Positions 4,005 to 62,361 of a stretch of 64,000 nucleotides of DNA are shown piece after piece; positions within the stretch are counted from its first letter, which is position 1; each line of letters opens with the position of its first letter. The notes below the pieces were generated by a model. That model was not told where the DNA came from, did no database searches, and saw only the letters and a program-made list of their open reading frames with translations. This DNA is from Candidatus Bathyarchaeota archaeon. Lineage in GTDB: Archaea > Thermoproteota > Bathyarchaeia > Bathyarchaeales > Bathycorpusculaceae. The position numbers were made by a program, and so were the translations under genes. The DNA is taken from contig CAWHVC010000002.1 in NCBI GenBank assembly GCA_963832745.1, positions 256,001 to 320,000 on the forward strand, given 5' to 3'.

Positions 4005-4415
4005 CCTGATTAAACTGAGTTTTATTTGTCGTATCTTAAAAACATGAATGAAAAAGACCTCGCTAAACTGCTTGGGCACCAATATGTTGATTATAGAAGA
4101 ACTCACAAATTGTCACCAATTTACTAAATATTAAACAGAACCTTACTGTTATAAGATCACGGCATAATGCAATTTTAATATTTTGAAATTATTGTCATTA
4201 TTAAATTGTTGTTAGTAAATAATACATTTTATTATGCAAAATAGTATAAATTGTGCGATAACTTCTCGTTTTCTGATAAATATGACAAAATTATTAAAAC
4301 AATCAGTCAGAAGCTTTTTGAGAACAAAAGCACTAAAAACTGCGCGAACAGTCTTTTTCAAAAAAACCACATTTTCACATAACCTTTCGAGTACCAATTA
4401 TGAGGTGAAAAATCA

Positions 4416-6011
4416 ATGACATGTTACAGAAGATCACACATTATACAGCAGCGAGCAGGCGCTGGTACAGGTTACCAAATCAAAATTATTGTTCACAGTG
4501 GAAACGGAACCACTCAGAACGGAACCAACGAGCTATGGTGTAATAACCATTGTAAAAACGATTTTAGTGATATTAGATTCACTGCAAGCGATGGCTATAC
4601 ACCGTTACCTTTTTGGTGTGAAAGTCTAACCCAAGCAGACCAAGCTGTTTTTTGGGTTAAAATTCTTGATGATCTCAGTAGCGCGAACAGCACAATTTGG
4701 GTTTATTACACTCTCAATTATGATGCTACATATACCCCTTATCCATCAGCAAACAATGGTAAAGAAACTTTTCTATTTTTTGACGATTTCGCAGGATACC
4801 TAGATCCTTTGAAATGGAACACTTGGAAGGAAGGCGGTACGGGGGGCGGTACCGAGGTTAATCAAAGTGAATTGCGTGTAACCGGTGTCTCAAATTGGCA
4901 AAAAGTCGGTTCTAAAGTCATGTGGGGTTACCCAGTAGCTTTCCGTTATAAAGGTCGATTTAGTGAAGCAGGTTATTGCCAGATAGGTGCAGATGATGGT
5001 ACAGCAAGCAGTACTGGTGATGGATATAATGGGGTGGATCAAGCAGCCTTTAGTTATGGGAATAGCACGAAATCATATCGGTTTTCTAGACAAGGTGGCT
5101 ATACTACGATTTCAAGAACGTCTAATTTAAGCTCAAACACAACACTGGAAATTTGCAGACTCAAGAAATAGATACCGCAGACCCCTAAAAAAATCTACTT
5201 CTATGAAAATAATGTCCTTAAGGCATCGAATCAGAGTAGTGGTGTTCCGCTTAATGATCAAGGTCTCTATTTTGCGGCATATGGGTCAGATGTGTATCTT
5301 GATTGGTGTTTAGTTCGCAAGTTTGTTGACCCTGAGCCTGCTCATGGAGACTGGACAGGCGAAGATGTTGGGACAGATCAACCGGTTACAGGTAATTTGT
5401 TAGTGGCAGGAACAGCAGTAATAAATGGTCCCATCACAACAGGTCACGCAACACTTACTGGTTGTATGCAAAGTAATGAACATTGGGATAGCTTAGGATG
5501 GAACGATTTTTTGGACGCTATGAAATATCACAGGTTTTCTAATACAGTAGGCAAAATTCGTTTCCATGATTTAGCTGGTAGTGGTGATGTAGATCTTCAT
5601 GGTGCCTCGTTGGGTGATCCTATATTGGTTTGTACTCAACATTTCGCTGTAGAAAAAGACTTGTTAGCCACTGGAATGTTAAACAGTATTGAAGGAGAAT
5701 TATGCCTTAATGCAGGCAAATACGCTCCAAATTGGGCATGGGAAATCGTCAGCACTCATACACCTCTTACAACGGGTGAAACTACTACAACAAAGAACCC
5801 TTTCATTTGGCTAGCACAAGGTGGAATCTTTGGAAATTATAACACTTTGGAAATAAGAGTAACTGGAGACGCTAATGGAAACTGGAACTGGGGAAATTTT
5901 GCATGTGGAGACATAACAAGTTACGGAAACCTGCAAGTAAACTCGATAGTATTACCTACAAATCGTGCATCGCCTGCTGATGGTGAAATCTGGTTATACT
6001 CTGGAGCGTAA
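4416..6011 (+). pseudogene. DUF2341-domain structural/adhesin-like protein (~531 aa) interrupted by one in-frame TAG at 5169-5171
   Basis: GAGGTGA RBS at 4402-4408; DFSDIRFT, AVFWVKI, TIWVYY, NNGKETFLFFDDF motifs; ORFs 4416 and 5292 are in the same frame and the gap reads open (IPQTPKKIYFYENNVLKA...DVYLDWCLVRKFVDPEPAHGDW); ends ASPADGEIWLYSGA. Confidence 0.7.
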
Positions 6012-6086
6012 CAAAATGTCAAATGACTTACTTAATGGAGAGTTTTTTTCTTCTCTCTTTTTTTATCAAAACAACTGTGAAATGAG

Positions 6087-7945
6087 GTGTTACTTGGGAG
6101 TTGGTTGACTGGTTGGACTAATAGAAAGTCTCATTTGATTACTGGTGCTACTGGTGCAGGTAACGATTACCAAGTAAAAATTATCGTTAATTATGGTTCT
6201 GGTAGCGATAGTGGTAACAGTGTTTATTGTAGCAGCAATTGTGGTCAGGATTTTGGTGATATACGTTTTACTGGTTCAGATGGAACAACATCACTTCCGT
6301 ATTGGATGGAGAAAAAAACTGATGGAACCAGCGCAGTCTTTTGGGTTAAAGTATTAGCCGATTTAAGTTCTAACCTAAACTATCTATGTCAACTACAATA
6401 AACCCAGCGAAACAACCACAAGTAACGGTACTGACACTTTTGACGTTTTTCGCAATTTAGTCGACAACTTCTATGCTGCTTTGGGAACAGTTAACCTTAC
6501 CATTTACAATAATGGCCAAGATCCTGGAGACTACTTTATCGCTTCACAAACTGTAAATTCAGTGAACATTAGCCCCTGTATCTACTTCAGAGTTTATGGT
6601 GGCAAAAAATATGCCGTATCTTTGTCTAACCTGTACTTTGAGGGTTTACTTGGTGGTGGAAACTATGGTATCTGCGGAATAGACCTACGCAACCGAACCT
6701 GAGCTGCTCCAACAGGCTGGAAAACATCAATGGCCTACACTGCAAATACAACGCTAAACAAAAAACACGTTGTTGTACTCGATTACTTAAAGGCAGGCAC
6801 TGGCAGTGGATCTATCGTGTTCTATTCAAGCTGGTCTAATCCTGATGATATACCTGAAGGTACATCTGCTTTAAGCCAAAGCCTTTCTTCCACGTCAAGG
6901 GCTGTCACCGAATACTTATACAATGGAAGCGTTTCGCACATTAGAATATCTGGTGAACCAAATTCCCAAGTTACCGCTTACTCTGCAGTATACGCGGTAG
7001 GTAAATATGTTAACCCTGAACCATCACATTCAACCTGGGGCAATGAAGAGTCTTCAGGTGGCGGAACAATACCTGATCAATCCAGTTTCCTACGTTTCAA
7101 GCGGGCTGACGGAGTTTACGCGCTTTGTGTTGTACCTAACGGTCAAGGTGCGGCCAGCATGGGTGGAATACCCAAAGTACGAAAAGACGGTGTCACATAT
7201 GACATCTATCTTGTTGAAACAAACGACGCTTTTGCAAGCCCTGTTAGAGTTAAAACCAGTGCTGGAACAAAAGCCGTACGATACTACACGAGCTCACAGT
7301 GATTCAGTGCACTCGGACGTAGCTCACAGCGATAACAGTTCTCACAGTGATGTCCCATTTTCAAATGTTGTGCATTCTGACTCTTCAACTCACAGCGATG
7401 TTGCTCATTCCGATGTTTCCGCTTTTTCCAACTGGGTAGAGCACTACGATCACAGTGACAGCCCACATAGCGATATTACTCATTCAGATGCCAGTAGCGC
7501 CCATAGCGATACGGCATTTAGTAACGTTGCTCACTCTGATACTCAACCCCAGTACTATTACGATGCCGCCCATTACTGGGATGGTTATTACCATTTGGAC
7601 GCGACTGGCGGTACCCCGATTGAACACTACGATTACAGCGACACTCCACATTCTGACGTTGTACATAGTGATGCTTCATCTCACAGTGATACGGCATTTA
7701 GTAACGTTGCTCATTCCGACACTCAACCTCAAGGATACTATGACCAATACAGTTGGTGGGACCAATATGACCACACAAATCATCAAAATGTTCCCTTTAG
7801 TAACACAGCACATTCAGATAGCACTCCTCACAGTGATGTTACTCATTCAGACGTACCCCACAGCGACACCGCGACAACACATAGCGATACCCCACATTCA
7901 GACTCTGTACATTCAGATACAGCAGAAGGCATAATCGCCTTCTGA
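6087..7945 (+). pseudogene. Reconstructed ~620-aa protein: DUF2341 domain + linker domain + C-terminal HSD/aromatic-x-Asx repeat tail
   Basis: Extra A near 6378 (removing it restores TIYVNYNKPSETTTSNGTDTFDVF), in-frame TGA at 6700-6702 (NRT*AAPTGW), and a +1 shift near 7290 joining KAVRYYT to AHSDSVHSD; joins track ORFs 6087, 6481, 6730 and the 3' part of 7007. Confidence 0.7.
7292..7920 (+). repeat. Coding low-complexity repeat: 23 HSD, 5 FSN and other aromatic-x-D/N triplets, with an internal duplication of ~180-nt period
   Basis: Counted from the translation; GATACGGCATTTAGTAACGTTGCTCA occurs at ~7508 and ~7688. Confidence 0.9.
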
Positions 7946-7963
7946 CCTTTCGGGGTGAATATT

Positions 7964-9246
7964 ATGGCTATAATTGTAGTTCCAAATTTAAGTTGCAATA
8001 TCGGCTGCAAATACTGTTTTGCCCACGGCTACAGTTGGGTTGAAAACTCAAAAAAGAGTTACAACCTTAACGCTATGCTGGAATCAATGGAAAAGATGCA
8101 CAAACAAACCGGCGGTGACCTATTTTGTATGCATGGCGGCGAATGCACGTTGATAGATCGAAGTGACTTTGAAACCATCCTTAAAAAAATGTATCAGTTA
8201 CAGGGCAAATCATCTATTCAAACTAACGCTTACGAAATTGACAATGACTTAATTCGGCTATTCAAAAAATACAAAACTTCTGTTGGGGTAAGCATTGACG
8301 GAGACGGCGAGTTAAACTCCTTAAGAGGGTTCCCTTGTAACAAAGAAATGTCCAGCAAATATACCAATGTTGTTCTCAAGAACATGTTTGAAATGCAAAA
8401 ACAAGGCATCAATGTTGGCGTAATCACTTTGTTGCATAAAATTAACGCTGGCACTGACGAGGCACTTGACAAACTAGTTGACTTCATTTTGATGTTAAGA
8501 GCCAATAACATCAGAGGCGGCAGACTAAATTTAATGTGGACAAATTATCCAGAAGTAAAACAATACGAATTAACTCCACAAGAAGCTTCAAATGCATGGC
8601 TATACCTCTATGGCAACCTTAAACATTACCTGATTTAGAGTGGCAACCCTTCAGAGAATTCGCCGATAACCTTCTTGGTTATGGTCATTTTAGCTGTTCC
8701 TTTGGTAAATGTGATTACTTCTGCACAATGGGTGCTAAAGTCATACTGCCAGATGGTTCACTTGGAAATTGTGACCGCACTCATCAGGAAGGAGTTACAT
8801 ACACTAGAGCAACTGAGTCTCCTACATACGAACGATATGAAGTGTTAAAAGAAACAGATTGCAGTAATTGCAGATTCTGGAACATATGCTATGGCGGTTG
8901 CCCTTCTGAAGGTGACAACAGCGACTGGCGAAACAAAACACGATGGTGTAAACCAACATACGACCTCTACAGCGTTATTGAAGCCGATATACGCGCCCTT
9001 TTTCCTAACATAAACCTTGTAACCGATTATCATGGCAAAGAAGACTACTTTGATATGGTAAAAAAAGGCGTATACATCAAAGCATTCAGTAAAATGACCT
9101 GGGAAACAGCATGCAACCCTTCTTCATGGAAACACACTCAAGAAAAGCAGCCTTGGGGTACAAATCAATCCCGTCAACCTGTTTGCAATCCTCATGGCGA
9201 TTCTCCTCATGGTGACTTTACAAACAATGGTGGTGAAACCAATTGA
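7964..9246 (+). pseudogene. Radical SAM/SPASM maturase (~427 aa; anSME/triceptide-maturase-like) split by a 1-nt deletion at ~8630
   Basis: GGGGTGA RBS before ATG 7964; CNIGCKYC, HGGE, QTNA, SIDG; restoring one C gives YPDLEWQPFREFADNLLGYGHFSCSFGKCDYFCTM, joining ORF 8728 with SPASM cysteines GNC...CSNCRFWNICYGGCP...WC. Confidence 0.85.
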
Positions 9247-10040
9247 CAGACCTTAACCCGTTTTTTAAAATATCTTGGAACAACGCCAATATCAGAAATA
9301 CATACGACAAAATAATTGCTTCAGCCAACGAATTAAGCTACAGAGCAGAATATGAAATGGTAAAGCTTGGGCTGCGACAAGCAAACGTGTACCACATGAC
9401 TCCGAATAGCTTTGACAAACAAATCGAAACCATAACAAACGATGGATTGGTTTTCTTGCCAATTCTTAGAAGCAAGGCATACAGCGGATTTAGCCACAAA
9501 CATTTTCCAGTTGACAAGTTAGACAGCGATACATTCGTATTTGGAGTAGTTGCCCAAAGCATTGAGATAGCCCAAAAATTCAAAGCTGCCTCCCTTAAGG
9601 GTGACCATATTACTCAAGGTGAACTGCTTGGCTACCCCAAATGCTGTTGTGAAGCATTCAGCAAAAACTGGTCTAGCAATAAACTTGATCCATGTTATGA
9701 ATCGGCAGTCAACACACCTGAAGCTACTTTGGATTACACTAAAGAAAAAGTACACGTTAATGGCGATGCATGCCTTAATACTATGCTTAGGTACTTTGGG
9801 GTGAGAATAGTTCCTTTCTTCCCGTGTAGTTACCAATGCAGCGAAGCTTTGGATGTCAGCAAGAACTGGTTTGAAGTAATGAAATCCTTAAACAAAGATG
9901 TTACTTTAAAAGTCAAGGAACTGCTTGAACAACCACTAACATGGGTATTTAACAAAGGCATAATCTACATAACAACTCCCATTATGCGAGCTGTTGTGAA
10001 CGGATATGAATGTGAAAGGAAGAGTGTACTATGGCAATGA
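9243..10040 (+). CDS. DUF483-like Cys-motif protein
   Basis: GELLGYPKCCCEAF and VPFFPCSYQC motifs; start overlaps the radical SAM stop (TTGA); GGTGA RBS. Confidence 0.6.
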   Translation: MTDLNPFFKISWNNANIRNTYDKIIASANELSYRAEYEMVKLGLRQANVYHMTPNSFDKQIETITNDGLVFLPILRSKAYSGFSHKHFPVDKLDSDTFVFGVVAQSIEIAQKFKAASLKGDHITQGELLGYPKCCCEAFSKNWSSNKLDPCYESAVNTPEATLDYTKEKVHVNGDACLNTMLRYFGVRIVPFFPCSYQCSEALDVSKNWFEVMKSLNKDVTLKVKELLEQPLTWVFNKGIIYITTPIMRAVVNGYECERKSVLWQ

Positions 10041-10744
10041 CTGAAGAAAAGCAAAAGTATGCAATTGATTTCGTCAAAAAGACTCTTCCAGCTGATGCTG
10101 AAATACTCTTCTTAAGCTTGACTGGCAGTAGAGCATTTGGATGGGCCGATGGCGCTCAAGACTATGATGTTCATGGTGTCTTTCTATGTGATAACTATTG
10201 GGATTGGGTTCATTATGGAAAAAATATGTTTGATATTAATCTCTATGAGCTTCACCATATACAATCCGATATAGTTTGTTAGCATTTTGAGGAATTCATG
10301 AACTTTTCTAATCCATTCTATGTAAACCCCAAATTTGATTATGACGGATTGATGTCTTTTTGCACAAATGATAGTGTCAGACAAAAAGATGCTGATATAG
10401 AATCGCAGATAAACCGGTTTAAGTACGACGGATCACCAAGGACTGCTTTGCATGCCTACAGAATACTTATGGTGCCTTTGTATTTCATTGAAAATCGAAA
10501 GTTTAAGCTGAACATTTTTGAAATCAACGGACAGGACGCATTTGGTTTTTCTGAATTGAATAACTTAAAAGCTGCATATAATCTTGGGCATTCTAGTTAT
10601 AATAGAAAAAAAGTGCTTTCTGATTTAGAGTATTTGCACAATCTCTGCAAAGAAAAAATTGCTAAGTTACCTGCTGAAAAACCGGATATGGAGAAGGCTA
10701 AGATTTGGCTTAAAAATGTTAAGGGGGGTTTATTGCAAAAATGA
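10037..10744 (+). pseudogene. Pol-beta superfamily nucleotidyltransferase (YcgL/RlaP-like) with in-frame TAG at 10280-10282
   Basis: LTGSRAFG...DYDVHGVF (GS...DxD) motif; ORFs 10031 and 10298 share a frame (DIVC*HFEEFMNF); ATGA overlap with the upstream gene. Confidence 0.7.
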
Positions 10745-10971
10745 GTAACGAACTAAACCCTTATCAGGATATGTCACCAATGAACGGTAAATTAAATGTT
10801 GAAATGCAACGGCAAATCGCTACTTTGAACGCTCGGATTAACAATGCTACGTTAGCTTATGATGATTTGCTTAAAGAGATTAATTGCGTCTTTAAGATGA
10901 TGCTGAATACAATCGAAGTCCTGCAAAGGGAAGCTACTGAAATTAAGGCCAAGGCTCAGGATAAAGCCTGA
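10741..10971 (+). CDS. Small coiled-coil protein, last gene of the island operon
   Basis: ATGA overlap, G-rich RBS, heptad-like helix. Confidence 0.6.
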   Translation: MSNELNPYQDMSPMNGKLNVEMQRQIATLNARINNATLAYDDLLKEINCVFKMMLNTIEVLQREATEIKAKAQDKA

Positions 10972-38831: not shown

Positions 38832-40066
38832 ATGTCTGGTACCTTTATGCTAGTTAGCACTACCAATCTTAGCAAAGACACGTTGAAAGGCAAAACTGCC
38901 ATAGTCACGGGCGCAGGTAGAGGCATTGGCTATGAGGCAGCAAAAGCGCTTGCATGGCTTGGCTCAAACGTGGTTATCGCCGAAATCGACTCACAAACAG
39001 GAAAAACCGCAGAAGAAACCCTCAACAAAGAATTTCCCGGAAGAGCCTTTTTTGTTAAGACAGACATTGGCAACGAACAAGACATTCAACAACTTGCAAA
39101 GGACGCAACCGGACGTTTCGGCAAAATTGACATTGTCTTAAACAACGCTACAGTTTTTCCAATGGGCGCTGTCAAAGATATACCAGTTTAGAAGTGGGAT
39201 TTTAGTTACCGCGTTAACCTGAGGGGGCCAGTGCTTCTGGCAAAACAGTTTCTGCCAGCTATGCTTGAACGCAAGTCGGGCGTATTTGTCTGCGTTTCCT
39301 TTTCAGGAGCAGCGCCATTTATGGGTCCATACGAAGTTTTCAAAACGGCACAAGTGGAGCTTGCTAACACTCTTTCTGGTGAACTGGAAAACAGCGGCGT
39401 CTATGCTTTCACTATTGGACCCGGCATCTCATTGACACCAGGGTTTATTGAAGGCGGCGGCAAAGTTGCAGAACTAATGCGCCTGAGCCTAAAAGAGTTG
39501 TTTGAACTAAACAAGAACGCTCAGATTAGCCCCGAAGCGGCAGGCACAGGCTTTGCATTAGCCATTGTTTACGCACAAAAATATGCAGGCCAAGAAACAA
39601 GCTCCATTCAGGTACTGCGTGAAGCAAACATTGCCATCAGCGCAGAAATTGAAAGCCAGCCAGAAAACCAAAGTCAGCTAACACCTACAGCAAGGGAATC
39701 AAGCGAAAACCTAAGCACACAGCAGCTCTACAGGGCAGTCCAAAAAAGCTTCATGGAACAATCCGAAGGCTGGAAAAAACGCAATCTTTTCGAGCGGCAA
39801 GGGTTAGCCGAGACTTCAAAAAGAACACGGGTCGAAGCATAGACGAAATGCAATCAGCCCTTAAAGCACTTGGCGAAAACATCAAAAATCAGCAATCTAC
39901 AGCCGAATTCATTACGCCTCTAAACAGTATAGCCGTTTACTATGCGCATCAGCAAGACCAGTTAAAAGGTTACGAAAAAGATCCAAATAAGCTGGCAGCA
40001 AACCTGAAAATCATTGATGGCTGGATAAAAGAAGTTAAAACCCTAATTCAGGTATTGCAAAGTTAA
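38832..40066 (+). pseudogene. SDR oxidoreductase with C-terminal extension; in-frame TAG at 39189-39191 and a 1-nt deletion near 39800
   Basis: TGAGRGIG, NNA, YEVFK; DIPV*KWDFSYRVNLRG reads through in frame; restoring a T gives ERQWVSRDFKKNTGRSIDEMQ joining ORF 39848. Confidence 0.8.
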
Positions 40067-52428: not shown

Positions 52429-55400
52429 GTGGACTCATTGGCACAACTAAACTCTTCTCCATCAATGCGCCGTGTTGAAGATTGGAAATCACGGTTAATC
52501 GATTTAACCCGCAGAAACAACCTGCTTTACTTCCACGCAACCAGACGCGGAAACCTTCCAATAAACAAACCCGACGCAGAAACCATATTCAAAGAGTTGG
52601 TTATAAAGAAAAAGCATCTCGAGTTCTGGATGCCGCCCGAAGAGGACGAAACTCAAACTGATGTGTCAATTAAATCTGTGCCTATTGAAGAACCCAAAAA
52701 GCCCGGACCAAACCAACTTGTCAATGAAAACCTCAAACGCATCGACCTTGAACGGGTCCTAAAAAATCTTCAAAGACGCTCACTGCTCGACTACCGTGAA
52801 CGTGGTGTAAGGATTCTTTACGCCGCTTTTGGTAGGCTGAACTGGGTGGACAGCGAAACCAAAGAAAACGTGCATTCCCCGCTGGTTTTGGTCCCGTTGG
52901 AGCTGGCAAGGGAAACAATCCGCAAACCTTTCGAGGTTTATTTGCCGCCAGTTGAAGACGAAGCCATTGTAAATCCTGCATTGCAGGTAAAGCTGAAGGC
53001 AGAGTTCAAAATTGATTTGCCTGTTGCCCCAGAAGATTGGGAAACAGAAACCCTTGCAGAGTACTTTACCGCTGTAGCTCAGGCAGTTGCCCAGATGGGT
53101 TGGACAGTTGAGTCCACGATAGATTTAGGTTTATTCTCCTTCCATAAACTTGTCATTTACAAGGATCTTGAGTCCAACGCTGACTTGGTTACCCAGCACC
53201 CAATTATCCGTGCAATTGTGGGCATTAAAGACGAAAAGCTTGTGCTTGACCAGCTTCCAGACGAAAAAGACGTTGATAAAATCCAGTTGCCCGAGAAAAC
53301 CTACGAAGTCCTAGATGCAGACAGCAGCCAACGCGTTAGCATAGAATACGCGCTCCGTGGTCAAAGCTTTGTCATGCAGGGACCACCTGGTACTGGAAAA
53401 AGTCAAACCATCGCAAATATTATTGCCGAATGCATAGCACATGGGAAAAGTGTGCTTTTTGTAAGTGATAAAATGGCTGCTCTTGAAGTTGTCTATAAAC
53501 GGCTTAGTGAGGTTGGGTTGGCTCATTTCTGTTTGGAACTTCACAGCAGCAAAGCTAACAAGCAAGAAGTTGTCGCTGAGCTTAAACGTAGTCTTGATGA
53601 GCATCTTGTGCCACGTAAGTTGCCTTCAGCGCACGAGTTTGAAACAATGAAAGCTTATCGTGACAACTTAAACGGTTACGTCGCAGCTTTGCATGAAAAG
53701 CGTCCGTACCTGCAAAAAAGTGCCTATGAAGCCCTTAGTATAATCGCCAGCCTTGAACGGGTTCCCTACGTTGCAGTTGGCTTAACAGGTTTAAACACTT
53801 TAACGCCTCAAAAAATAAGCGAACTCGAAGGATTAAGCTCTGAGTTAAGCAAGGTTTGGCACGTGGTTGAAGAATCAGATTTCCCATGGGCAGGCTACCG
53901 CGCCAGCATCTACAACCTTGAAGTGCGCTCCGAACTGTTAACCACTATTGAAGTCCTCGCACAAACCGTTGAAGACCTTCAACTGGAAAGCGCAAACTTT
54001 TCTGGGCGACTCGGATTAAGAACCCCTGCAAGCCTTGAACGCGTAAAATGGTTAATCAGCATCGGAAGACTGCTTTACGAAAGCCCTAAACCTGAAGCAC
54101 AATGGGTAACCAGCCCAAAAGTAGACACCCTGATAGCTGAAGCCAAAGGCTACAATGAAACTTGCCAATGGATAAAAACTACAAGAAAAAGTCTCCTTGA
54201 ACGCTATACTTCTTCACTGTTTGACCTCGCCTTTGACCGGTCACATGAGCTAAAGAAGAACTTGATTATTCTTGAAAAACTGTTTCCAGGCGTAGACTTG
54301 CAAGAAGCCGAATTCTTAGCTAAACAGGAGAAACTCTTAGCTTACATCCGAAGCACACAGCAAGCTGCTAAAAAATGGCGTGAAAACGCTCGGTCGCTTG
54401 CAGAAATTTGTGGTTTGCCAACTGAAAACTTGAACCTGCAGAATGCTCGGCAATTATCCAAGATGGCTTTGTTCTGCTTTACCGAAGACAAGCCGGAGCC
54501 GCAATGGTTTGATCCAGCTGTTTTCCAGCAAGTACAAAATATTGTTTCAAAAGCAAAAGACGCTTACCAGCAATATAATCTGATGCGGGAACGTTTAAGC
54601 AAATCTTATACTTCAGGCATTTACGAGTTGGACCTTGATGAACTTATAACCCGCTACAACGGCAGCTATCAAGGCTTTACAAGAATGCTTAGTCCAAGCT
54701 TTCGAGGTGATCAAAAACAGATTGCCAGAGTCAGTGTTGATGGAAGAGTTCCCAAAACGATTCTGGGTGACTTAATCGATGCTCGTAAAGTTAAAGCGCT
54801 TCATACAGAGATTGATGCTCAGGCGGAGGACGTCAAAAAACTGTTAGGCCGTTTCTACCAAGGATACAATACAGATTTTCTAAGTGTAGAAAAAGCCGTC
54901 AACATGCTGAATGAGCTTAAACAGGTTAAATGGGCAAACCCGCTTCCAGAAAGTTTGGTCAAACTTGTTACGAGCACTTCCAGTCCTTCACCTATGATTA
55001 AACATTTAGGCAGTGAACTGGACGATTCAATAGTTAAATGGGAACAACAAGCCAAAGAAATAGCTGAATTAATTCCCGAACGTTTGCCTTACTCGGATTT
55101 GCCGTTAAACCAGACTGCACTGTCACCGCTTGAAGAATGGGCAGCCGACGTTGAAAAACAACTTGCGCCATTAAACATACTGACAAAAGAAACTCTATCA
55201 ACCGCCAAAACATCACCGAAAAACTATAACCAACTTCTTGAAGACCTAGCTAACGCTGAAGAAGTTCGTAGAAAAGAGGCGGCAATAACCGGCGAGAAAT
55301 TCCAGCTCCAAATCAAGTACGGTTCTCGTTTCAATTTGCTTGAAACGAACTGGCTAGACATAATCTCCGTGTTGGAATGGGTAAAACGTGTTCAGGCAGC

Positions 55401-58044
55401 TTTCGGTGAAGTTGCAGTTCCAGAAACTTTTGCGTTAATTGCGGCTGCTGGGCCCTCTAAAGCGCCCTCTGATGCCAAGTTGGCTCGTTATTATGAAGAT
55501 ACTTTACAGTCAATATCTATTTTTGAAGCACGATTTGAAACTGAACTCAAATATCAAAATCAGAAACTCCGCAACTTAGACCTCTTGGTGATTTATGAGC
55601 GTCTCAAGGCTTTGCGTGAAAGAGTTGATGAACTGCAGGTTTGGATTGACTTCAAAGACCTTAGGAACCGTTTCTCTCTTCGTGGTTTAAGTGAATTCTT
55701 CCAACGGCTGGTTGAGCAGAAGACGCCATCTCGCCAGTTGATTGATGTTTTCCGTAGAGGCACTTATCAGGAATGGATAAACAATCTTTACAATGAAGAC
55801 CCCCGATTGGGCAGGTTCCGCAGGGAAAACCATGAACAATTAATAGTTGACTTTAAGAAGCTTGACAAAGAACTTATACATTTAACCTCAAGTATGGTTA
55901 TTGAAGCCGCAAACAGCCGCAAACCGCAAGACATCCTAATCCAAGCTAACGACTCCGAAGCAGCAATCCTCATGAAGGAAGCCGCCAAAAAACGCCGCTT
56001 AATGCCCATACGCACACTTCTACAGAAAATCCCACACCTGCTCGTCAAATTAAAACCGTGTTTGCTCATGAGTCCCATCAGCGTTAGCCAGTTCCTTTCG
56101 CCTGAAACAGCCCAGTTTGACCTTGTCCTGTTCGATGAGGCTTCTCAAATTGTTCCTGAAGACGCTATCGGCTCAATTTACCGAGGTAAAACACTCGTTG
56201 TCGCAGGAGATAACAAGCAGTTGCCGCCGACCAGTTTCTTCCAAAAATCCCTCATAGATAATCTTGACTGGGACCAAATAAACGATGAAGACTTTGAAGT
56301 TTTTGACAGCATACTTGATGAATGTCTTGGCATAGGTTTACCTGTCAAAACCTTAAGGTGGCACTACCGCAGTAAACATGAGGATTTAATCGCGTTCTCT
56401 AACCACCAGTTTTACGATGACACGCTCATTACTTTTCCAGCAGCAAAAGCCCGACATGACAGTTTAGGTGTTAAAATGGTTTATGTGCCAGACGGCATCT
56501 ACGATAGAGGCGCAAAACGGGACAACACGATAGAGGCTGAAAAAGTCGCAACTTTGGTCTTTGAACACTTCACTAATTACCCAAAGAAAACCCTTGGAGT
56601 CGTTACTTTTAGCATTGCTCAGATGGAAGCAATAGAAGAAGCAATCGACCGCCGCCTAAAAGAGCAACCACAGTTTGACCAATTCTTTAAAGAAGACCGT
56701 CTTGAAGGCTTCTTTGTTAAGAACCTTGAAAACGTTCAGGGTGACGAGCGTGATGTTATCTTCTTCAGTGTCGGTTACGGTTACGACCAAAACGGGCAAA
56801 TGGCTATGAATTTTGGTCCATTAAACAAGCCTGGAGGCGAACGCCGCTTAAATGTTGCTGTAACTCGTGCCCGTGAAAAAGTTGTTATTGTTACATCCAT
56901 TAAATCTGTGGATATTGACCCCGAAGCAAAAGCTCAAGGTGTCCAAACTCTACGCAGCTATCTGGAGTATGCTGAGAAAGGTCCTGAAATTCTTGATACG
57001 CCCCATCAGAAAGCTGGCACATACGAGTCACCGTTAGATGAAGATGTTGGTTCTGAAATTCAAAAGTTGGGTTATGAGGTTATTCCGCAGGTGGGTTGTA
57101 GCGGCTACAAGATTGACATTGGTGTTATTGACCCTGTTAACCCTGGTTCCTACTTGCTGGGTGTCGAATGTGATGGAGCAACATATAAGTCAAGTAACAG
57201 TGCCCGTGACCGTGACCGTCTCAGAGAACAAGTCCTCAAAGGCTTAGGCTGGCGAATTCACCGTGTTTGGTCTCCCTCTTGGGTTGCCCGTCGTGATTCT
57301 GAAGTTAAACGCTTAAAAGAAGCTCTTGAACAGGCACAGAAACTGCAACTGGACAAGGAAGTACTTATACCGTCTGTTGACGCAAAAGAGGACGGTCTTG
57401 TGGAAGCTGACGTGCGCAAAGTCAAGTTTGCTGGCATAGAAAAAATCGGTGTCCCCTACAAGATTTACCCATTAAAAGCAGCGTTTAGTCCATACATTAA
57501 AGTGCAGACAGAAAAAGCTACTCACACCTCAAAACAGAAAAACGAGTTCCATTACCCAGAAAACCGCGAAATCCAGACACGCCTTCTCGGCGAACTCATC
57601 GAAAAGGAAGGGCCCATCCATTTTGACTATGCTGTTGAACGCCTCTCTGATGCTTGGGGAATCAAACGTATAACACCAAAAATTAGCCATGCGGTACAAG
57701 AAGCCCTCAATGCCCTACTAAGAGACCAAAAAGTCGTAATCAAAGGCAGCTTCTTATGGCCACCACACCTGAAAGACGTGCAAATCCGCATACCAGTTGA
57801 CGGCATACCTGAAACCAAACGTAAACTTGAGCATATCCCGCCTGAAGAGGTGGAAGCTGCTATGAAGCTTATCGCTCAATATGCGCTTGGTATAAGTGAT
57901 GAATCTTTGGTGGCTGAAACCGCTAAAGTCTTCGGCTTAAACCATTCAACCGATAAGTCTAAAGAGTACTTCAATGAAATTCTAAAACGGCTCGTACGGG
58001 AAAGAAAATTAGCCATTAAAGATGGAGTTATAACTTTGGCTTAA
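52429..58044 (+). CDS. DUF4011-SF1 helicase-Vsr-like nuclease-DUF3320 protein (Hhe-like defence candidate)
   Basis: WKSRLIDLTRRNNLL, DADSSQ, QGPPGTGKSQTIAN, KPCLLMSP.SVS, FDEASQ, GDNKQLPP, LRWHYRS, ENVQGDERD, RRLNVAVTRAR, GVECDGATY...RDR.R..L..LGW. Confidence 0.9.
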   Translation: MDSLAQLNSSPSMRRVEDWKSRLIDLTRRNNLLYFHATRRGNLPINKPDAETIFKELVIKKKHLEFWMPPEEDETQTDVSIKSVPIEEPKKPGPNQLVNENLKRIDLERVLKNLQRRSLLDYRERGVRILYAAFGRLNWVDSETKENVHSPLVLVPLELARETIRKPFEVYLPPVEDEAIVNPALQVKLKAEFKIDLPVAPEDWETETLAEYFTAVAQAVAQMGWTVESTIDLGLFSFHKLVIYKDLESNADLVTQHPIIRAIVGIKDEKLVLDQLPDEKDVDKIQLPEKTYEVLDADSSQRVSIEYALRGQSFVMQGPPGTGKSQTIANIIAECIAHGKSVLFVSDKMAALEVVYKRLSEVGLAHFCLELHSSKANKQEVVAELKRSLDEHLVPRKLPSAHEFETMKAYRDNLNGYVAALHEKRPYLQKSAYEALSIIASLERVPYVAVGLTGLNTLTPQKISELEGLSSELSKVWHVVEESDFPWAGYRASIYNLEVRSELLTTIEVLAQTVEDLQLESANFSGRLGLRTPASLERVKWLISIGRLLYESPKPEAQWVTSPKVDTLIAEAKGYNETCQWIKTTRKSLLERYTSSLFDLAFDRSHELKKNLIILEKLFPGVDLQEAEFLAKQEKLLAYIRSTQQAAKKWRENARSLAEICGLPTENLNLQNARQLSKMALFCFTEDKPEPQWFDPAVFQQVQNIVSKAKDAYQQYNLMRERLSKSYTSGIYELDLDELITRYNGSYQGFTRMLSPSFRGDQKQIARVSVDGRVPKTILGDLIDARKVKALHTEIDAQAEDVKKLLGRFYQGYNTDFLSVEKAVNMLNELKQVKWANPLPESLVKLVTSTSSPSPMIKHLGSELDDSIVKWEQQAKEIAELIPERLPYSDLPLNQTALSPLEEWAADVEKQLAPLNILTKETLSTAKTSPKNYNQLLEDLANAEEVRRKEAAITGEKFQLQIKYGSRFNLLETNWLDIISVLEWVKRVQAAFGEVAVPETFALIAAAGPSKAPSDAKLARYYEDTLQSISIFEARFETELKYQNQKLRNLDLLVIYERLKALRERVDELQVWIDFKDLRNRFSLRGLSEFFQRLVEQKTPSRQLIDVFRRGTYQEWINNLYNEDPRLGRFRRENHEQLIVDFKKLDKELIHLTSSMVIEAANSRKPQDILIQANDSEAAILMKEAAKKRRLMPIRTLLQKIPHLLVKLKPCLLMSPISVSQFLSPETAQFDLVLFDEASQIVPEDAIGSIYRGKTLVVAGDNKQLPPTSFFQKSLIDNLDWDQINDEDFEVFDSILDECLGIGLPVKTLRWHYRSKHEDLIAFSNHQFYDDTLITFPAAKARHDSLGVKMVYVPDGIYDRGAKRDNTIEAEKVATLVFEHFTNYPKKTLGVVTFSIAQMEAIEEAIDRRLKEQPQFDQFFKEDRLEGFFVKNLENVQGDERDVIFFSVGYGYDQNGQMAMNFGPLNKPGGERRLNVAVTRAREKVVIVTSIKSVDIDPEAKAQGVQTLRSYLEYAEKGPEILDTPHQKAGTYESPLDEDVGSEIQKLGYEVIPQVGCSGYKIDIGVIDPVNPGSYLLGVECDGATYKSSNSARDRDRLREQVLKGLGWRIHRVWSPSWVARRDSEVKRLKEALEQAQKLQLDKEVLIPSVDAKEDGLVEADVRKVKFAGIEKIGVPYKIYPLKAAFSPYIKVQTEKATHTSKQKNEFHYPENREIQTRLLGELIEKEGPIHFDYAVERLSDAWGIKRITPKISHAVQEALNALLRDQKVVIKGSFLWPPHLKDVQIRIPVDGIPETKRKLEHIPPEEVEAAMKLIAQYALGISDESLVAETAKVFGLNHSTDKSKEYFNEILKRLVRERKLAIKDGVITLA

Positions 58045-61890: not shown

Positions 61891-62361
61891 TTAACATTGT
61901 TTTACTCTGAATTTCTTTGCTGCCAAAGCCGTTGTTACGAGTTCTCTGATTTCATCTGGTAATTGGTTTTCTTGCCATTTGCGTTCATTATCCACTGGTT
62001 TACCTGCGGTTTTAACAGCTTTTAATGCATACCAAGCTGCTCCTAATGAGTGATCAGCCATGTGAGATGCTGCAACAGTTTGCCCAACGCTTCGAGCTAC
62101 TGCGAGAGCTAATGGGTCAGTTAATTCTTTTGCTAACGCAATTATATCGTAAGCTGCTTTTCTTGCGTCGCCAACTGTAGCTTTTCCCTGTTTCCAAGCT
62201 TCAGCCACTTTTAACGCGTTTAGCATCAGTTCATCAGGTTTATCTCCATAGAGGGGTAACACGTGTTGGGAACAGTTGATTGCCCATTGGATTAGTTGTC
62301 GGTGCTGCTCTAATTTTAATTGTCCTCCGCGGTGTTCGGTTATGAATCTTTTATCTCTCAT
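61891..62361 (-). CDS. Imm5-like putative immunity protein
   Basis: HRQL..WA..C..HVL...AW..G....ARKAA....A...GQ.VA..HM.DH..GAA.YA.KA...E..WQ...LP pattern. Confidence 0.7.
   Translation of the reverse strand: MRDKRFITEHRGGQLKLEQHRQLIQWAINCSQHVLPLYGDKPDELMLNALKVAEAWKQGKATVGDARKAAYDIIALAKELTDPLALAVARSVGQTVAASHMADHSLGAAWYALKAVKTAGKPVDNERKWQENQLPDEIRELVTTALAAKKFRVKQC

Follow-up and report, generated by a model that had tools for sequence, protein, structure and literature searches.

Evidence that a His-Ser-Asp repeat array on a Bathyarchaeota chromosome is the C-terminal tail of a larger protein and a probable substrate of the adjacent radical SAM enzyme

In order to interpret an array of His-Ser-Asp (HSD) repeats, we analysed a 64,000-nucleotide stretch of a Candidatus Bathyarchaeota archaeon (assembly GCA_963832745.1, contig CAWHVC010000002.1, forward-strand positions 256,001 to 320,000), referred to below as the window, with positions counted from its first letter. 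The array occupies positions 7292-7945 and precedes a gene for a radical S-adenosylmethionine (SAM) enzyme with a SPASM domain. An initial annotation, made from the letters of the window, had taken the repeat as most likely a fused C-terminal domain. The comparisons described here support this view: the array reads as the C-terminal tail of one protein, encoded by a single gene (gene B, 6087-7945). Taken as a whole, the interpretation that we consider probable is that the fused tail serves as a protein-sized substrate of the radical SAM enzyme, that it undergoes a triceptide-like modification, and that the genes form a cassette of viral type. Its directly documented elements are the architecture of the fusion, the pattern of the triads and the linkage of the genes over many loci.

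Fusion of the repeat tail with the preceding domain

Two overlapping open reading frames (ORFs) meet at the start of the repeat. ORF 6730-7302, in frame 1, terminates with SPVRVKTSAGTKAVRYYTSSQ and a stop codon (AVRYYTSSQ, TGA at 7300-7302), and ORF 7007-7945, in the +1 frame, reads TRAHSDSVHSDVAHSD from 7292 onward. The repeat, which starts as AHSDSVHSDVAHSD, was correctly described as beginning where the 6730 frame stops. The start of ORF 7007 had been regarded as a shadow of the 6730 frame, and for its initial 95 or so residues this is borne out by tblastn: homologs follow frame 1, with 59-65% identity, as far as 7290, and matches in frame 2 begin no earlier than 7292/7295. It had also been claimed that the repeat is directly preceded by neither a Met codon nor a ribosome-binding site. 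Indeed, no ATG lies ahead of it; however, an in-frame GTG exists at 7307, five codons into the repeat, and is preceded at three bases only by GTGAT, a weak Shine-Dalgarno-like match that does not appear convincing as a ribosome-binding site.

The nucleotide sequence around 7285-7295 was checked against short-read data, for which two marsh-metagenome DNA runs were available, containing short contigs of the region and a small share of its words. Four contigs of 151 nt (7155-7306, 7318-7468, 7522-7672 and 7759-7909) matched the window with 0 mismatches, and the sole difference was the omission of base 7290 in the contig of run X1 that spans 7155-7306. Of the six lesions of the island, these contigs cover the one at 7290. 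Without this base, RYYT runs straight into AHSDSVHSD in one frame. None of the frame-shift sites of the island is located at a long homopolymer, and the sequencing-run search listed no RNA run with the region.

Relatives of the domain that precedes the break were collected by a phmmer search with window 7054-7299 against 1.84 billion representative proteins, which returned 199 matches at E<=1e-3, of which the 150 listed were inspected. As a caveat to the fusion, about 130 of these 150 end directly after the domain, without a tail, and are mostly about 100-140 residues long. Nineteen homologs extending at least 27 residues past the domain were chosen by eye among the 150 listed. An in-frame triad tail follows in six of the 19 (P0005, P0003, P0009, P0016, P0043 and P0033), the junction having the form A[VI]RY[YF]T-x-H.D, and the remaining ones carry Gly-rich, LamG, InlB-repeat or other tails. 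P0003 corresponds to positions 10001-10984 of L012, a contig from a Candidatus Bathyarchaeota metagenome-assembled genome, and starts at a GTG with GAGGA upstream. Two near-identical metagenome loci, L013 and L014, have a gene starting at ATG whose 295-residue product consists of the domain and an HSD tail. In every relative found with such repeats (P0003/L012, L013/L014, P0005, P0016, P0009, P0043 and P0033), these stand in frame after the 72-residue domain, and no separately initiated repeat gene following the domain was seen among the domain homologs. Both checks proposed earlier favour the fusion: in homologs of the SPVRVKTSAGTKAVR domain, H-x-D repeats are in frame wherever such repeats follow the domain at all, and the short-read sequence at 7285-7295 puts the two parts in one frame. 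In the record of P0009, a triad-free stretch at about 190-260 interrupts the triad sequence and looks like a frame error.

Since base 7290 is absent from the short-read contig and the tails of the relatives are in frame, the fusion reading is supported, and so is the interpretation of the break at 7290 as a one-base insertion, in the assembly or in the strain, rather than as a gene boundary.

The fused gene also extends further upstream than the two ORFs indicate. A DUF2341 (PF10102) match at 6087-6401 scored 39.3 bits, above the Pfam gathering cut-off of 23.4. An intact DUF2341 protein of the genome G076 (locus L002, 1495-2601, minus strand), ending in TWGPEESF and a stop codon, can be aligned with 6105-6368 at 53% identity and with 6379-7053 at 45%, and passes through the position of Met 6730. 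This Met is internal to the DUF2341 gene, the frame of the window extending upstream beyond the in-frame TGA at 6700, where P0002, from a near-identical contig, has S. Because the intact homolog spans its Met, ORF 6730 is not a gene of its own, and on this point the initial annotation has to be corrected. The sequence SSGGGTIPDQ joins the DUF2341 part to the beta domain, with neither stop nor start between them. In gene B, which encodes about 620 residues in total, a DUF2341 module is followed by a GGG linker, then by the 72-residue beta domain and lastly by the 217-residue tail; three lesions fall within it (the frame change near 6385, TGA 6700 and the extra base 7290). ORFs 6730 and 7007 should be merged in the annotation into a single gene starting near 6087.

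The AlphaFold2 model of the 72-residue domain shows six strands with a predicted local distance difference test (pLDDT) score of 91.6. Foldseek found nothing in the PDB at E<=1e-3 and the wide VIA-align search gave a best Z of 2.6, which does not prove a new fold. In BFVD the best fold matches were uncharacterised Caudovirales proteins (top E 4e-6, template modelling score 0.76). Short forms of the domain are present in six IMG/VR contigs; in one locus (L019) the short domain gene has a virion structural/tail-appendage gene on one side and a DNA-ejection gene on the other, which places it within a phage structural module. Neither the domain nor the tail belongs to a known family in Pfam, NCBIfam, PHROGs or PADLOC.

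As a separate observation, in a same-family genome (locus L026, G465:C2) the C-terminal half of the domain is fused at 7454-7834 to Cys-rich CQTxCEVSC repeats, 5' of a different radical SAM/SPASM gene (8212-9375), and the full domain carries the same Cys repeats in P0121 and P0128. The domain may be a carrier of several kinds of tails modified by radical SAM enzymes.

The triad tail and its linkage to the radical SAM enzyme

The tail contains 38 copies of the motif [HFYW]-x-[DN], where 2000 shuffles gave 9.5 on average and never more than 18, and 23 copies of HSD (shuffled mean 0.8, maximum 6). This repeat is far beyond chance. The triads are mostly HSD with a spacing of 5-6 residues, and 28 of the 29 His residues fall within H-x-[D/N]. 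The tail is acidic (isoelectric point 4.67), contains zero Lys, Arg and Cys, and ends in HSDTAEGIIAF, followed by the stop codon. C-terminal ends are common to several tails, for example H.DQPV[LFY]VG, and archaeal tails end in [IV]P[TS][FWY]. When searched against 5.8 billion proteins, the tail gave two weak matches only, one of them P0003, which at its start has a homolog of the residues preceding the break and then H-x-D repeats in the same frame. The tail alone, searched at the order level, matched only the window's own genome (1 of 201), and a scan of IMG/VR with the tail-family alignment revealed no relative. An AlphaFold2 model of the whole L014 precursor (7-row alignment) left the tail unstructured, the mean pLDDT of 42 being too low for use. 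A complex prediction combining the enzyme (44-row alignment) with precursor residues 1-115 scored 0.00, which counts neither for nor against an interaction.

The enzyme gene begins 18 bases 3' of the end of the tail gene, with GGGGTGA six bases ahead of its ATG. In the window it matches Pfam Radical_SAM (E 4.7e-14) and the NCBIfam SPASM model TIGR04085 (E 4.1e-7, 8728-9246). The intact enzymes of L012 and L014 align to it at 7964-8629 in frame 2 and at 8632-9237 in frame 1, with 63% identity for the L012 enzyme. When the intact L014 enzyme is compared with NCBIfam, the models that it matches best over its full length are those of DynA, the anaerobic sulfatase maturase (anSME) and the cyclophane-forming YhhB and AmcB; the XyeB, GrrM/OscB and FxsB models match weakly, and PADLOC yielded no more than a generic viperin-core match. 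Among proteins of solved structure, anSME and the triceptide synthase ChlB are nearest in sequence.

The 130 homologs of the enzyme found at E<=1e-30 are all unnamed. In 65 of the 120 listed, at least two H-x-D motifs occur within the protein's own last 45 residues, with up to eight tandem HGD pentads, and the C-terminus of the window enzyme likewise has HGD motifs (NPHGDSPHGDFTNN). This HGD tail of the enzyme itself could be a cis-fused substrate, a pseudo-substrate or a metal-binding tail. A search of 401 genomes sampled from the class found the enzyme clade only in the genome of the window, and likewise the precursor, apart from a partial domain match in G465.

IMG/VR gave 77 loci, 34 of them with an enzyme match of at least 105 bits, and 43 loci served as controls. 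A triad-dense ORF, defined by at least 14 triads per 100 residues, was present in 31 of the 34 viral loci of the enzyme clade versus 4 of the 43 control loci, several of the 34 being near-duplicates whose counts are not independent. This ORF ends just upstream of the enzyme gene, on the same strand, in 21 of the 34; a DUF483-like ORF was found in 29 and an enzyme ending with H-x-D motifs in 26.

Among 50,697 phage records, only the Thermus phages Cumys, phiMa and phiLo matched the enzyme. The L014 enzyme aligned by tblastn with those of Cumys and phiMa at 31% identity and 100% coverage (E 2e-54 and 3e-54). In Cumys, the baseplate genes are followed by a tail collar fibre protein, two hypothetical proteins, a radical SAM protein and a DUF483-domain protein. 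The 343-residue hypothetical protein beside the enzyme, Cumys_13, proved upon translation to be an H-x-D array protein. The cassette appears to be of viral type, the repeat gene standing among tail-fibre genes in phages.

The tail is most likely the substrate of the adjacent enzyme, and both layout and motif fit the formation of triceptide-like rings. That the enzyme acts on the tail is our inference, as are the chemistry and what the product does. In the proposed mechanism, the radical SAM/SPASM enzyme, whose gene starts 18 bases downstream of the tail, would take the tail with its approximately 38 triads as a substrate of protein size. The enzyme would work with the DUF483-like partner and, in the archaeal versions, also with the nucleotidyltransferase. 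If the analogy with triceptide synthases holds, it would most likely join the beta-carbon of each Asp or Asn to the ring of the His, Tyr, Phe or Trp that stands two positions before it. Such ring formation would give the disordered, acidic tail the form of a string of small and rigid rings, which the beta domain and the DUF2341 module would mount on a particle or a surface structure. A bolder proposal, which we regard as possible but doubtful, is that the enzyme staples each of the some 40 triads of a whole structural protein, giving a rigid, protease- and heat-resistant, metal-binding cyclophane chain, which tailed viruses infecting bacteria and archaea would use at the tips of their fibres, and that the cassette was captured on this chromosome and fused to a DUF2341 surface module for cellular use.

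Neighbouring genes, state of the island and competing explanations

The features of the island are collected in Table 1.

Table 1. Features of the repeat-tail island, with positions in the window
Feature	Position	Strand	Characteristics
DUF2341 gene A	4416..6011	+	one frame; in-frame TAG 5169-5171; Pfam DUF2341 E 5.4e-17
DUF2341 part of gene B	6087..7053	+	start near GTG 6087; +1 frame change near 6385; TGA 6700-6702
72-residue all-beta domain (FLRFKRADGVYALCVV...YDIYLVETND...SPVRVKTSAGTKAVRYYT)	7078..7290	+	phmmer family, AlphaFold2 model
Extra base G	7290..7290	+	separates domain and tail frames; left out in X1 short-read contig
Tail, 217 residues	7292..7945	+	aromatic-x-Asp/Asn triads; motif counts vs shuffles, composition, homologous tails
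Radical SAM/SPASM enzyme	7964..9246	+	ATG 7964; CNIGCKYC cluster motif; -1 frame change near 8630
DUF483-like Cys-rich partner	9243..10040	+	GYPKCC motif; Pfam DUF483 E 4.4e-7; 57% identity to L012 partner
RlaP-like (polymerase-beta-type) nucleotidyltransferase	10037..10744	+	tblastn 56% identity to L012 gene

Upstream of gene B, gene A matches DUF2341 at 4416-5171 with 62.5 bits. Its C-terminal part, which ends in ADGEIWLYSGA, weakly resembles the fibre-like gene located upstream of the L012 precursor (397-residue L012 protein versus window 5616-5858, tblastn 30% identity, E 5e-4). Downstream of the enzyme, the nearest Atlas clusters of the DUF483-like partner are mostly from tailed viruses, and a sequence search returned no solved structure for it. 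The nucleotidyltransferase is broken by the in-frame TAG 10280-10282, where L012 and L014 have Gln; Pfam RlaP matches were obtained on both of these homologs. In L012 and in L013/L014 the same gene set stands intact beside the tail gene. In these loci a fibre-like gene precedes that of the precursor; its end has the form G.IW, and in L014 it contains an NADMLDGHH motif, which we take to be typical of tail fibres.

The ends of such fibre-like genes (L014 1668-3119, L012 8797-9990, window 5292-6011 and L106 3961-4992) follow the pattern G(A/N/E)(L/I)W(V/L), and the phage H-x-D proteins Cumys_13 and P0004 start with two or three PGSxWxEG...YxD repeats. Both may represent one structural element that is divided between genes in different ways.

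The remainder of the window is an ordinary archaeal chromosome with genes such as those for Cdc6/Orc1, Nre and Rpb5, and so are the 20 kb upstream. A gene at the island's edge (605-1291) encodes a treble-clef zinc-finger protein of the form CxxC-x17-CxxC, and the L013/L014 contigs have a Cys-rich 148-residue protein at the corresponding end. Further away are a 1871-residue protein with DUF4011, helicase AAA_11/AAA_12 and MTES_1575 nuclease domains (52429-58044) and an Imm5-like immunity protein (61891-62361); both may be defence-related and unconnected with the tail.

One broken gene was found among about 45 scanned in the window outside the island, a short-chain dehydrogenase (38832-39842) interrupted by an in-frame TAG at 39189 (DIPV, stop, KWDF). 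The island lesions near 6385, at 6700 and near 8630 lie within 15 bases of an AACCT, a word occurring 12 times on the + strand of 4400-10750; this proximity may reflect a systematic base-calling context or chance. Recoding of the stop codons TAG 5169, TGA 6700, TAG 10280 and TAG 39189 was considered and rejected, since no genome-wide excess of in-frame split ORF pairs occurs at TAG (TAA 131/1586, TGA 56/510, TAG 44/416); Aragorn, run without intron mode, found no tRNA with a CUA or UCA anticodon. A programmed frameshift at the break was rejected as well, because no slippery motif was seen and the neighbouring genes have unrelated lesions.

Several results weigh against the modified-tail interpretation. 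The read support for the indel consists of one 151-nt contig with a depth of 2, which may derive from the window's own sample or from another strain. Six lesions affect five genes within 6.3 kb (TAG 5169, near 6385, TGA 6700, 7290, near 8630 and TAG 10280); assembly error and decay both remain as their explanation, and the cassette may be dead in this strain. PHROGs detected no virion gene in the window island, the other ORFs of which had no match. The L014 enzyme scores far under every curated family cut-off, as for DynA, its best match (99.7 bits, cut-off 450), YhhB (73.6, 445), AmcB (71.9, 425) and XyeB (33.8, 450). The authors who described the Cumys module proposed DNA modification instead (PMC11437467). 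Finally, the 72-residue domain occurs in one of the 34 viral loci of the enzyme clade (L030) and the others use other N-terminal modules, many viral triad proteins beginning with PGSxWxEG...YxD repeats. The domain is thus not a general recognition element, and the idea that it replaces a leader peptide finds no support as a general rule. The other role suggested in the initial annotation, that of positioning the tail on a fibre or particle, fits better with the short domain forms in a phage structural module and with the position of the Cumys repeat gene after a tail-collar-fibre gene, and the domain more likely serves for mounting than as a leader.

The number of lesions leads to the most serious of the competing explanations, namely that base 7290 is real in the strain and that the island is the decaying remnant of a mobile or viral cassette, in which no fused protein is made and the fusion is only ancestral. 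Six lesions in 6.3 kb, set against the single broken gene in the rest of the window, point in this direction, as do the rare and patchy occurrence of the cassette in the class and the absence of frame-shift sites at long homopolymers. However, the four short-read contigs spread over 7155-7909 are identical to the window except for an indel located exactly at lesion 7290, the near-identical P0002 has a sense codon at 6700 and its indels at other places, as sequencing noise would give, and the triads and the enzyme are otherwise well preserved (57-65% identity to intact homologs). We regard decay as a tentative alternative, a good deal weaker than the reading of a fused and modified tail. A much more marginal explanation is that the repeat is a stand-alone gene started at GTG 7307 by coupling to TGA 7300, or that it is reached by programmed +1 frameshifting. 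The in-frame GTG four bases past TGA 7300-7302 and the abutment of the two frames without overlap would suit it. It is nevertheless very improbable: no homolog begins at the repeats, all of them having the domain in frame; the site has no clear ribosome-binding site, compared with the GGGGTGA ahead of the next gene; no slippery or rare-codon motif is seen at ACG AGC TCA CAG TGA; the neighbouring genes bear unrelated lesions; and a DNA copy without the extra base exists.

It is also conceivable that the radical SAM, DUF483-like and nucleotidyltransferase proteins act on nucleic acid or nucleotides, and that the tail is an unmodified, acidic, metal-binding fibre segment co-inherited with them. 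His and Asp are classical metal ligands, the archaeal cassettes contain a polymerase-beta-type nucleotidyltransferase, and the PADLOC match to the radical SAM core is viperin-like. Moreover, the Cumys authors cite homologs near deazapurine DNA-modification genes and DUF483-methyltransferase fusions (PMC11437467), and such a fusion also appears in the Atlas neighbours of the DUF483-like partner. On the other hand, the SPASM domain of the enzyme is complete and the families that it matches best over its full length modify proteins or peptides, its clade often ends in HGD pentads (65 of 120 listed), and in 21 of 34 viral loci a triad-dense ORF is placed directly upstream of the enzyme, which is the usual precursor-maturase layout. 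Altogether, this nucleic-acid explanation appears unlikely, and a tail modified by the adjacent enzyme remains the reading that we prefer.

Comparison with known systems

Radical SAM enzymes are known to cross-link aromatic-x-x motifs in natural products that are small peptides, HxsA being one recent case of a whole protein. Here, such an enzyme is tied genetically to proteins with tens of triads in the tail-fibre slot, in dozens of viral and a few archaeal loci. If the triads are modified, this would represent a post-translational chemistry of virus particles, which our literature search found in no paper; if the stapling and capture proposal is also true, a viral post-translational chemistry would have been taken over for a cellular surface structure. 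A cultured system is at hand in the Thermus phages Cumys or phiMa on T. thermophilus HB8. No paper pairing H-x-D, HGD or HSD repeats with radical SAM enzymes was found in the literature search, nor any pairing Bathyarchaeota with radical SAM enzymes and peptides made on the ribosome and altered after translation (RiPPs).

The closest printed description that we found is that of the Thermus phage "rSAM module". In section 8 of this paper, the module of Cumys and phiMa is given no assigned function, DNA modification is guessed and the repeats are unmentioned (10.1101/2024.08.14.607894 = PMC11437467). Like the window, the module (Cumys_13/12/11; PMC11437467) contains an H-x-D array protein, a radical SAM/SPASM enzyme and a DUF483 protein in the same order, and its enzyme belongs to the same clade and has HGD motifs at its own C-terminus. 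In contrast, three N-terminal PGSxWxEG...YxD repeats replace the 72-residue domain in Cumys_13, which ends in HADQPVRG, and the module has neither the DUF2341 fusion nor the nucleotidyltransferase. Furthermore, its surroundings are a phage baseplate/fibre block, whereas those of the window copy are an archaeal chromosome in which no virion genes were detected.

Triceptides are defined by aromatic1-X2-X3 motifs, the known His motifs being HAA, HNR and HTK (PMC11499958). As in the systems of HaaB, YhhB, HtkB, ChlB and XyeB, a radical SAM/SPASM gene of the window adjoins a product rich in such motifs, and the enzyme has both the CxxxCxxC cluster and the SPASM auxiliary-cluster domain. However, it lies outside the curated cyclophane-maturase families, and there is no short leader-core peptide of the kind that constitutes triceptide precursors: the precursors here are proteins of 300-620 residues (283-593 for the relatives, about 620 in the window) with folded modules and 38-50 triads. 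The third residue being Asp or Asn, the DUF483-like partner and the viral and archaeal context also set the present cassette apart. In triceptides the bond joins the aromatic ring to the beta-carbon of residue 3, with a change of -2 Da per motif, and by analogy the same would be expected here.

The HXS antiphage system offers a further parallel, in which the His-x-Ser repeats of HxsA are matured by the radical SAM enzymes HxsB and HxsC with HxsD (PMC13128918). Both systems would combine a whole protein carrying His-x-small-residue repeats, maturation by a radical SAM enzyme and a small partner, roles that in the window are putative. HxsD was not found in the window cassette, nor was a Pfam peptidoglycan-binding domain. 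Unlike the paired HxsB and HxsC, a single radical SAM gene is present in the window, and the HxsB model TIGR03978 gave 30.4 and 26.2 bits against a cut-off of 370. HxsA, which is bacterial and periplasmic, combines a peptidoglycan-binding domain with five basic HxS repeats, whereas the tail described here has about 38 acidic triads with no Lys or Arg. HXS is a defence system, while the cassette of the window would be of viral origin rather than a defence island.

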